This document shows positions 5,135 through 6,678 of a stretch of DNA of 23,451 bases, piece by piece. Positions within the stretch are counted from its first letter, which is position 1; every line of letters starts with the position of its first letter. Source of the stretch: Desulfobacterales bacterium (lineage in GTDB: Bacteria; Desulfobacterota; Desulfobacteria; Desulfobacterales; JADGBH01). The stretch spans positions 1-23,451 of the forward strand of contig JADGBH010000076.1 of the NCBI GenBank assembly GCA_015231595.1. Direction: 5' to 3'. The position numbers and the translations under genes are program-made. The notes beneath the pieces are model-generated. The model ran no database searches. It saw only the letters and a list, made by a program, of their open reading frames with translations, and was not told the origin of the DNA.

Positions 5135-5908
5135 TTAATTCATTTTTAGCATTTCAGACAAAATTTTTTGTATCTCTAATAAGGGATTTATATTTTTATC
5201 TATCGTCAATATTGATATCCCTTTTTTATCAAATTCAGAAATCAATCCGTCAGGGGAAACTTGTCCGTAAGTGATAAGCCCTTCAGTCCTAAGCTTTTCC
5301 ATAAGCGAATCGTCAATTTCATTTACTCGATTAAAAATAACACCGGTTTTAGTTGGGATCATTTTAGGGATTCTTGCCATTGTTTCTTTAAGTAGTATTG
5401 CGGTGTTGATGCTTCTTAGGGAATTATCACAAACAATAATTGGATAATTTACAGTTTCGACTACTTGCCGACCTACTTGTTCAATACCAGCTTCAGCATC
5501 AATTATTACAACATCAAATTTTGAAGAAACATATTCAATAGTTGTTTTCAATATAGTATTTAGAGGGCAATAACATCCAAGAGTATCAGTATATCCCATA
5601 GCAAGCATACTGAATTTTGCTGTATCAAAAACAGACTCAAGAAGGAGATAATCAATAACATCTGAAAGACCATCTTTTTCTTCTTGTGTTTTTGCAGATT
5701 TCACTATTTTTATTATTTCTTCCCTTGACTTTCCAATGGTTTTAAAACCGCTTATATTAAGTGCTGTAGAAAGACCCATTGCAGGGTCAGCGTCAATAAA
5801 TAAAACTTTTTTTCCCTGTTCAATAAATATTTTCCCAAATAAAGCGGATAAAATTGTTTTTCCAACTCCGCCTTTACCTAAAAAAGCTATAATTGATGGT
5901 TTATTCAT
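5135..5908 (-). CDS. CooC-family P-loop ATPase (MinD/ParA superfamily; Ni-insertion accessory-protein type)
   Basis: 257-aa ORF. It has the deviant Walker A GKGGVGKT, then IDADP, and a G-C-Y-C-P motif (LGCYCPLN) matching the CooC metal-binding CxC signature. The SD is AAGGG 8-10 nt upstream. Its start overlaps the upstream ORF stop by 4 bp. Confidence 0.75.
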   Translation of the reverse strand: MNKPSIIAFLGKGGVGKTILSALFGKIFIEQGKKVLFIDADPAMGLSTALNISGFKTIGKSREEIIKIVKSAKTQEEKDGLSDVIDYLLLESVFDTAKFSMLAMGYTDTLGCYCPLNTILKTTIEYVSSKFDVVIIDAEAGIEQVGRQVVETVNYPIIVCDNSLRSINTAILLKETMARIPKMIPTKTGVIFNRVNEIDDSLMEKLRTEGLITYGQVSPDGLISEFDKKGISILTIDKNINPLLEIQKILSEMLKMN

Positions 5909-6678
5909 TTTTTACCCTTTTTTAAAGCTATAGATTTAATTGTGTCGCAATATATTTTTTCGTCACACGAAGTACAATTTAAAGAGTCACAGCTTATAGC
6001 ACCAATAGAATCAAGCTTTGACCTTATGTTTTCTTCGTAGATTTTATTTGCTTTTAAGTTGATATCTTCAAATTTTTTGATACAGTCTGGTTCATCCGAT
6101 ATTAAAATTATAGATATAGATTTAATATTTTTTATGTGTTTTTTATACTCGGATATTAATGCAGAACCGAGCTCAACAAGACTGAATCCTTTGTCTATTA
6201 AGTTTTTATGAATTCTTACCCATATTTTGCCGGGAATGTTTCGAGGCATATATCCCGGTATTTTATTGCTTAAATATTTTAAAGTCTGGATTTTAGGATT
6301 AGTTGCGTCAGAATCCTTATCAAGTTCAAGCATTATTATTTGAGCAAAAGAAATTGCTTGTTTCTTTGTATTTGGAAAATCGGTTCCTTTTATCCATATT
6401 CCGTCTTTAACAGTATTATTTTGATTTGTAAATAATACGCAGCTTAAAGATGTAAATTTTGGAGGGCCGAGCTCTAAGGCTGTATCTTCTGAAAGAACAA
6501 CATAATTAAATGCTGGGTTATCATGTTTTATTATCGATTTTATTGAAGCATATTTGGAATCATAATCTTCAAGTTCGTGTTTAATGAAGGAATTACATTT
6601 GCTTTCAATGATTTCAAATACGTTTAAAATAAGGTCTGTATGGTCTTTATTAATAATAGTTGATTTATTTTCTTCCAT
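5905..6678 (-). CDS. Hypothetical Cys-rich protein with a C-terminal CX4CX2CX5C cluster, co-transcribed with the CooC-like ATPase
   Basis: 257-aa ORF. The C-terminal motif CDSLNCTSCDEKIYCDT suggests metal or Fe-S binding. There is a 4-bp overlap with the downstream CooC-like start. No family was recognised by eye. Confidence 0.55.
   Translation of the reverse strand: MEENKSTIINKDHTDLILNVFEIIESKCNSFIKHELEDYDSKYASIKSIIKHDNPAFNYVVLSEDTALELGPPKFTSLSCVLFTNQNNTVKDGIWIKGTDFPNTKKQAISFAQIIMLELDKDSDATNPKIQTLKYLSNKIPGYMPRNIPGKIWVRIHKNLIDKGFSLVELGSALISEYKKHIKNIKSISIILISDEPDCIKKFEDINLKANKIYEENIRSKLDSIGAISCDSLNCTSCDEKIYCDTIKSIALKKGKK

Follow-up and report, generated by a model that had tools for sequence, protein, structure and literature searches.

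A truncated acetyl-CoA synthase homologue paired with a CooC-type ATPase in a Desulfobacterales contig, and the genomic context of related pairs

Acetyl-CoA synthase (ACS; AcsB/CdhC) carries its A-cluster in domain A3, where the ligand set consists of Cys506, Cys509, Cys518, Cys528, Cys595 and Cys597 (Moorella numbering), and Cys595-Gly-Cys597 binds Ni. The CooC proteins, i.e., CooC1, CooC2 and CooC3 of Carboxydothermus hydrogenoformans and CooC of Rhodospirillum rubrum, insert Ni into the C-cluster of carbon monoxide dehydrogenase (CODH). To our knowledge, ACS and its CooC/AcsF chaperone are viewed as specific to the Wood-Ljungdahl pathway, and we know of no CdhC-like or CooC-like genes in the canonical bzd, mbd and bcr clusters of benzoyl-CoA reductases (BCRs). 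AcsF puts Ni into the A-cluster of ACS in an ATP-dependent manner (Gregg et al. 2016, as cited in PMC10134865). The locus described here is a pair of overlapping genes on contig JADGBH010000076.1 of a Desulfobacterales bacterium (assembly GCA_015231595.1), of which 23,451 nt were analysed (the window). The first gene encodes a short homologue of ACS, termed the stub below, and the second encodes a CooC-type ATPase. In related genomes this pair is found mostly beside genes of BCR-like enzymes.

The two-gene locus and its proteins

Both genes are open reading frames (ORFs) for 257 aa on the minus strand, with 5905..6678 as the upstream gene and 5135..5908 as the downstream gene. The features of the locus are as follows.

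5905..6678, minus strand: stub gene; 257-aa CdhC-type protein, identical in sequence to the metagenome-assembled genome (MAG) protein HQK76_16120 at NCBI (Desulfobacterales bacterium)
6091..6495, minus strand: region of the ACS middle (A2) domain in the stub, residues 62–196, located by Pfam CdhC, NCBIfam and a profile against the Protein Data Bank (PDB)
6214..6222, minus strand: W153-x-R155 of the stub, aligned with the ACS 'TWVRIS' motif; W153 and R155 are 97–99% conserved
5947..5991, minus strand: C-terminal Cys cluster C230-x4-C235-x2-C238-x5-C244 of the stub, from sequence and alignments
5905..5908, minus strand: ATGA, in which the TGA stop of the stub gene overlaps the ATG start of the ATPase gene, read from the sequence
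5135..5908, minus strand: gene of the CooC-type (MinD/NifH-class) P-loop ATPase, 257 aa, from sequence, profiles and an AlphaFold2 (AF2) model
5855..5878, minus strand: deviant Walker A motif G11-K-G-G-V-G-K-T18 of the ATPase with signature Lys12, at least 98% conserved in 115 homologues
5558..5578, minus strand: CxC motif G111-C112-Y-C114-P-L-N117 of the ATPase, aligned with C-Y-C of CooC1
5063..5102, minus strand: terminator-like hairpin of 18 pairs with a T-run after it, located 33 nt past the ATPase stop

A sequence-only reading of this DNA had described the ATPase frame with its GKGGVGKT and G-C-x-C-P motifs, a 257-aa partner ending in CX4CX2CX5C, and translational coupling between the two. 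These descriptions are correct, and the strand and the gene order, with the partner first, can be added to them. The ATGA overlap is compatible with translational coupling. The hairpin is the sole terminator-like site within 4950..6850, where shuffled sequences average 0.7, and it is likely, on weak evidence, to mark the end of a two-gene operon. A promoter scan 5' of the stub gene gave 6 sites compared with 11.2 in shuffles, and no promoter is claimed. The GC content is approximately 0.28–0.31 over the pair. Because it is approximately 0.3 across the whole window, the pair is not compositionally foreign, and horizontal transfer was rejected as an explanation for its orphan position.

By sequence and modelled fold, the stub is a truncated ACS homologue that consists of the middle domain and a C-terminal four-Cys site. 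It passes the Pfam CdhC model with 37.2 bits (cut-off 24) over residues 62–196. This is the sole Pfam match; it places in a family a protein that the earlier reading could not assign, and the DUF364/DUF4213 relationship suggested there was not found, nor was a match to any other heavy-metal-chelation family in Pfam. In NCBIfam the stub aligns to positions 20–170 of archaeal CdhC models and 315–469 of bifunctional AcsB models, which is the A2 domain, and it scores far under the full-length cut-offs (TIGR00316, 49 bits vs 356; NF007078, 38 vs 809). A profile of 30 stub-family members matched ACS/CdhC chains in the PDB with E values of 1.5e-14 to 1e-12; profile positions 61–235 pair with ACS 336–509, and this includes the ACS C-x-x-C. 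The AF2 model has a pLDDT of 86.6 and a pTM of 0.82, with low confidence only at the termini and in the Cys loop at 231–235. Foldseek comparison of the model with the PDB gave 23 matches at E ≤ 1e-3, every one of which is ACS (E down to 5e-10, TM 0.55 over about 180–200 columns), and the next best match has an E value of 0.26.

The C-terminus of the stub reads ...ISCDSLNCTSCDEKIYCDTIK. In the profile alignment C235-x2-C238 ('dCssC') is opposite the ACS 'sCllC', which is Cys506-x2-Cys509. Because the chain stops 13 residues past C244, the stub is without the remainder of domain A3, i.e., there is no Cys518, Cys528 or Cys595-Gly-Cys597, and domain A1 is also absent. It differs from ACS further in a new CX4C...CX5C spacing. 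In ACS of C. autoethanogenum, Trp405 makes a stacking contact with the adenine of acetyl-CoA, and Arg383 and His386 are acetyl-transfer residues (bioRxiv 10.1101/2024.08.05.606187). We infer from the alignment that W153 of the stub corresponds to Trp405. The positions of Arg383 and His386 land on variable columns of the stub family and are not conserved. Lacking an A3 domain, the catalytic residues and part of the ligand set, the stub is, as judged from its residues, outside the definition of an ACS.

In a word-indexed search the stub sequence on its own recovered 3 relatives, and a profile recovered 33. An exhaustive profile search, which covered 1.84 billion representatives, yielded 470 representatives at 50% identity with E ≤ 1e-3 and 283 at E ≤ 1e-10. 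The best 150 of the 470 matches are all short, and full-length members have about 240–320 aa. Among 153 full-length members, C235, C238 and C244 are present in 153/153 and C230 in 134/153, and some members without C230 carry an internal CxC instead. E69, G71, G98, G142, W153 and R155 are each at least 97% conserved in the same set. The further Cys residues of the window stub, at positions 28, 80 and 199, are not conserved. One family representative, P0148 (308 aa), is a three-Cys stub with a 2x[4Fe-4S] ferredoxin domain fused at its C-terminus (Pfam Fer4 2.7e-13 and CdhC 4e-8; CTGCEACLESCP ... CTGCGRCIPACP). Records that carry a name call the stub 'hypothetical protein' or 'CO dehydrogenase/acetyl-CoA synthase beta subunit'. 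The family can be recognized by a length of about 240–290 aa, an A2-like domain followed by an invariant C-x2-C-x5-C (usually after C-x4), and a position just upstream of a CooC-type ATPase gene. The window stub has all four Cys and the adjacent CooC-type ATPase, but no BcrAD_BadFG gene lies upstream of it.

The ATPase (sequence MNKPSIIAFLGKGGVGKT...GCYCPLN) is CooC-like by its amino acid sequence, as the earlier reading had proposed. Pfam places it only in the broad MinD/ParA/ArsA/NifH group, and it is above no model cut-off in NCBIfam. The single sequence matches CooC1 (3KJE) over residues 7–230; by BLASTP the identity is 27% over 229 aa, with C-Y-C opposite C-Y-C. When a profile of 39 homologues was compared with solved structures, CooC1 ranked first over the full length (E 2.2e-19) and MinD second over a partial length (1.8e-14). 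The deviant Walker A with its signature Lys, the CxC, the similar size (about 255 aa) and the full-length profile match are shared with CooC1–CooC3 and CooC. Unlike these, the ATPase belongs to a clade of its own that travels with the stub and not with CODH, and no canonical CODH or complete ACS client is nearby. Within this clade 115 full-length homologues, 38–57% identical to the window ATPase, were compared. G111, C112, C114 and N117 are invariant (115/115), so the CxC, whose loss the sequence-only reading had named as a point that would speak against it, is strictly conserved. The Walker A Lys, D39-A-D-P42 and D137-x-E-A-G-x-E-Q-x-x-R147 are invariant or nearly so, and there is no conserved Cys beyond C112 and C114. 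Named records call the protein 'AAA family ATPase' or 'CO dehydrogenase maturation factor'.

The AF2 model of the ATPase has a pLDDT of 89.3. Its top Foldseek matches are BchL and NifH (E about 1e-11; 25% identity to BchL), and Cfd1/Nbp35/ApbC-type SIMIBI ATPases are also among the structural neighbours. With NifH/BchL/CfbC and Nbp35/Cfd1/ApbC it shares the SIMIBI fold and a Cys site at the dimer interface, close to the N-terminus of the corresponding helix. It differs in having CxC where NifH has Cys97 and Cys132 and the carrier ATPases have CxxC, and its scores are far under the family cut-offs (TIGR01281, 27 vs 345; BchX, 21 vs 331). At 17613..19207 (plus strand) the window encodes a second MinD/ParA/NUBPL-type ATPase, of 304 aa, and after it a 187-aa ORF with no Pfam family. 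The similarity of this ATPase to the CooC-type ATPase is limited to a weak P-loop match, and no link to the pair was seen.

Genomic context of related pairs

Related pairs were collected from 39 loci, 10 of them with Pfam-labelled genes and 29 from genome and metagenome scans that were annotated by BLASTP against the labelled genes. Together with the window these collapse to 26 non-redundant loci, and 23 of them are evaluable for upstream neighbours. The loci were retrieved with motifs from a narrower alignment, which produces a bias to the closer subfamily, although distant loci of the L028–L039 type were still recovered.

A CooC-type gene follows the stub gene in all loci with enough downstream sequence, except L031 and L035, and the two genes are often overlapping or abutting. 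This adjacency of client and ATPase genes is as in acs operons. In 20/23 evaluable loci the stub gene is immediately preceded by one or two BcrAD_BadFG ATPase genes, often with overlapping stops and starts, and most loci of sufficient length have HGD-D genes at a distance of up to 9 kb. Locus L016 has the gene order HGD-D, HGD-D, BcrAD, BcrAD, stub, ATPase. Its subunits best match BzdO (6e-14), BzdN (4e-31) and MbdQ (3e-53) of class-I BCRs. Two HGD-D subunits (best matches BzdO and BzdN) and one or two BcrAD-type ATPases (best match MbdQ) are what the operons around the pair in relatives have in common with class-I BCRs (BzdNOPQ, MbdNOPQ) and the wider BCR/2-hydroxyacyl-CoA dehydratase/double-cubane family. 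The enzymes linked to the pair are divergent, as is evident from the E value of 6e-14 to BzdO. The closest relative of the window stub, P0002 (42% identity), is in a BcrAD-linked locus. The sequence-only reading had proposed a comparison of orthologous pairs, and this shows that the window pair stands alone where most of its relatives adjoin BcrAD-type genes.

No genes for CODH, full ACS, corrinoid Fe-S protein or methyltransferase were found in the window or in the related loci with labelled genes. The pair differs in this from ACS loci and has BCR-like neighbours instead. The earlier statement that the window has no CODH/ACS gene thus holds for CODH and for complete ACS in family searches of the 23-kb window, but the partner itself is a truncated ACS homologue. 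In the same way the ATPase is an orphan in that no CODH or full ACS is nearby, but it adjoins a cut-down copy of the classical client and is not detached from that enzyme family.

The distant subfamily (L028–L039) has one BcrAD gene and an extra gene of 230–250 aa between the stub and the ATPase (7747..8442 in L028, 7516..8277 in L036). This interposed gene has no Pfam family and may represent a third component of the module; several small conserved neighbours in related loci are likewise without a Pfam family. Recurrent neighbours are genes for nitroreductase, ferredoxin, GMC oxidoreductase, thiolase, CoA ligase, START, enoyl-CoA hydratase and CCG/FAD-oxidase proteins. All but the last of these recur in the flanks of the four-gene unit in L001, L004, L005, L010, L015 and L017, and GlcD/CCG-type oxidoreductase genes are present in L003, L007 and L016. 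The substrate of the pair-linked BCR-like enzymes may be a hydrophobic acyl-CoA.

Hosts in the records are Desulfobacterales, Smithella/Smithellaceae, other Deltaproteobacteria, Spirochaetota/Leptospirales and Promethearchaeota MAGs, and Chloroflexota and Myxococcota records are present among the ATPase homologues. Locus L007 (Promethearchaeota MAG GCA_054381395.1, contig JBQSAH010000009.1) represents an Asgard archaeon with stub and ATPase genes and no BcrAD gene. Genes for a B12-binding-domain protein and a predicted membrane protein are just upstream in this locus, and a Ras/Roc GTPase gene is downstream.

In the open-access full-text literature we found neither a report of a short CdhC-like protein that is partnered by CooC nor one that places either gene in a BCR cluster, and absence there is no proof of novelty. 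The term 'CdhC-like' in bioRxiv 10.64898/2026.07.07.736967 refers to full ACS without the prismane domain, and 'CooC-like' in PMC13056359 refers to CODH operons. The homology and the context described here are solid and unexpected. They reveal a widespread cut-down derivative of ACS/AcsF that in most sampled genomes is wired to ATP-dependent BCR-like enzymes and not to CODH. Its diverged representatives number in the hundreds and occur in Desulfobacterota, Spirochaetota and at least one Asgard archaeon.

Possible roles of the pair

The reading that we favour, tentatively and at a little below an even chance, is that an enzyme-chaperone pair derived from ACS and AcsF now serves BCR-like enzymes, with the ATPase loading a metal or cluster onto the stub and the stub acting as a redox or accessory protein. 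Homology, domain content, motif conservation, gene pairing and context are its observed side. Which metal is handled, in which direction it passes and what is done with the BCR-like enzyme we infer. The two-gene operon would descend from an ACS/AcsF (CooC-type) pair, and the stub would retain the CoA-binding middle domain of ACS and a four-Cys site, two of whose Cys correspond by homology to the first pair of cubane ligands in the A-cluster. The ATPase would dimerise on ATP, hold metal at the invariant CxC, and spend ATP on loading or completing a metal or Fe-S centre at the Cys site of the stub, as AcsF does on ACS. This assignment is proposed because it is parsimonious with AcsF and ACS. A short loop that holds four Cys, including the two with cubane-ligand counterparts in ACS, suggests a [4Fe-4S] centre, and the ferredoxin fusion in P0148 suggests a role in electron transfer. 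Retention of the CoA-contacting Trp/Arg suggests that the stub may have kept an ability to bind CoA thioesters, the compounds on which BCR-type enzymes act. The loaded stub would then be a redox or accessory subunit of ATP-dependent enzymes of the class-I BzdNOPQ/MbdNOPQ type. The two earlier suggestions, delivery of metal by the pair to a different metalloenzyme or an uncharacterised maturation system, remain viable, and the context of relatives adds class-I BCR-like enzymes as a candidate target.

Several observations weigh against this reading. BcrAD, HGD-D and the other cluster genes of relatives gave no tblastn match anywhere in the window, and the target in this genome would have to be encoded beyond the 23-kb contig. 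The pair is without BcrAD in three lineages (the window, L006/L024 and the promethearchaeotal L007). The sample of 26 loci is small in comparison with the family, in addition to its bias to the closer subfamily. In 19/153 stub members there are only three conserved Cys, and the ferredoxin fusion is a single case. Of the Ni ligands of the A-cluster, the stub keeps only the homologue of Cys509, so that Ni delivery is not implied by the sequence. BzdNO with [8Fe-9S] and [4Fe-4S] clusters has been made heterologously, and the text of that report mentions neither CooC nor 'maturation' nor 'accessory' (PMC11971306). As heterologous BzdNO acquires its clusters and no such factor is named, the pair looks dispensable for canonical BCR-type clusters.

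The same result bears on a rather unlikely alternative, in which both proteins are assembly factors, the stub a transient Fe-S scaffold or adaptor and the ATPase an insertase for the neighbouring BCR-like enzyme. The cluster built or repaired could be the [8Fe-9S] double cubane, the catalytic [4Fe-4S] or the [4Fe-4S] that bridges the BcrAD-type ATPase dimer. The tight linkage to BcrAD genes in 20/23 loci, the unusual clusters of class-I BCRs (PMC11971306) and the Fe-S carrier function of the related Cfd1/Nbp35/ApbC ATPases, found among the structural neighbours, agree with such a role, and assembly factors can be encoded apart from their targets, which fits the stand-alone pair of the window. 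Set against this are the intact clusters of heterologous BzdNO with no such factor named and the fusion in P0148, which suits a stable redox protein better than a scaffold; moreover, a scaffold role leaves the whole ACS middle domain and the CoA-contacting Trp unexplained. The redox character of P0148 would also suit a miniature nitrogenase-like electron pump, where an ATPase dimer with a redox cluster at its two CxC motifs drives low-potential electrons onto the stub cluster and feeds or replaces ferredoxin for the BCR-like enzyme. BchL and NifH are the top structural matches of the ATPase, and some linked clusters are without a ferredoxin gene of their own. This is nevertheless improbable, as the Switch II Cys that provides the second cluster ligand in NifH/BchL is not conserved, only C112 and C114 being so, the NCBIfam scores for NifH/BchL/CfbC are far under cut-off, the sequence profile favours CooC1 by five orders of magnitude, and the clusters already encode an ATP-driven electron module in BcrAD.

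CODH/ACS is common in Desulfobacterales, both proteins belong to CODH/ACS-associated families, and the window is one MAG contig, so an ordinary CODH/ACS operon could be elsewhere in the genome. The pair might then serve that enzyme, and the stub could function in AcsF-type maturation of its A-cluster as an adaptor, a decoy or a store of Ni. We consider this very unlikely, given that labelled related loci have no CODH, full ACS or corrinoid Fe-S protein genes and that their recurrent neighbours are BcrAD and HGD-D; the hosts also include Spirochaetota and Leptospirales MAGs. That the stub is a decaying, functionless remnant of ACS beside an ordinary MinD/ParA-type ATPase is scarcely credible. 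The loss of the catalytic domain and of the catalytic Arg/His agrees with a remnant, but the ORF is intact, the family comprises 470 diverged representatives (those listed are all short) and has invariant Cys, Trp and Arg residues, its synteny with the ATPase is kept across bacteria and an Asgard archaeon, and the CxC of the ATPase is invariant. These conservation data bring the remnant explanation close to refutation. A bolder variant, to which we give a low probability, is that stub and ATPase together form an A-cluster-like, Ni- (or other metal-) bridged [4Fe-4S] centre in trans, so that a subset of radical enzymes of the BCR/2-hydroxyacyl-CoA dehydratase (HAD) type gains an ATP-gated, metal-dependent acyl-CoA or electron step. 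The cubane would be on the stub, and the Cys509 equivalent would bridge to a metal on the ATPase CxC motifs, which would mimic the ACS Cys-Gly-Cys. Because the stub keeps the CoA-contacting face of ACS, this centre could handle acyl-CoA or electrons.

The favoured reading of a loaded accessory stub would represent an ACS/AcsF-derived module that has been re-wired to BCR-type enzymes. It implies that some members of the BCR/2-hydroxyacyl-CoA dehydratase family need an extra metallo-subunit and a dedicated metallochaperone. This would be relevant to the resistance of many such enzymes to heterologous production and to the evolutionary reuse of the ACS fold. The in-trans centre, if real, would represent an unrecognised Ni-dependent branch of BCR/HAD-type enzymology in anaerobes, including Asgard archaea.

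Other genes in the window

The 828-aa ORF at 1604..4090 (plus strand) has Pfam matches to MVP_shoulder (1.7e-29), Vault_3 and Band_7. Its residues 465–800 align with positions 467–816 of eukaryotic major vault protein (phmmer E 4e-13), and it represents a bacterial homologue of the vault shell protein that is near full-length in size. An alpha/beta-hydrolase gene (4087..5013) comes next, its start overlapping the stop of this ORF.

An RtcB ligase gene (19896..21032, minus strand) overlaps the downstream gene of an RF-1-domain protein (19255..19899, minus strand). The two look like an RtcB2/PrfH-type pair for ribosome or RNA repair. A DUF4384 protein gene (6788..7780), whose product has a hydrophobic, signal-peptide-like N-terminus, precedes a gene at 7815..11234 (plus strand) that encodes an unusually long (1139 aa) mechanosensitive channel protein of the MscS family.

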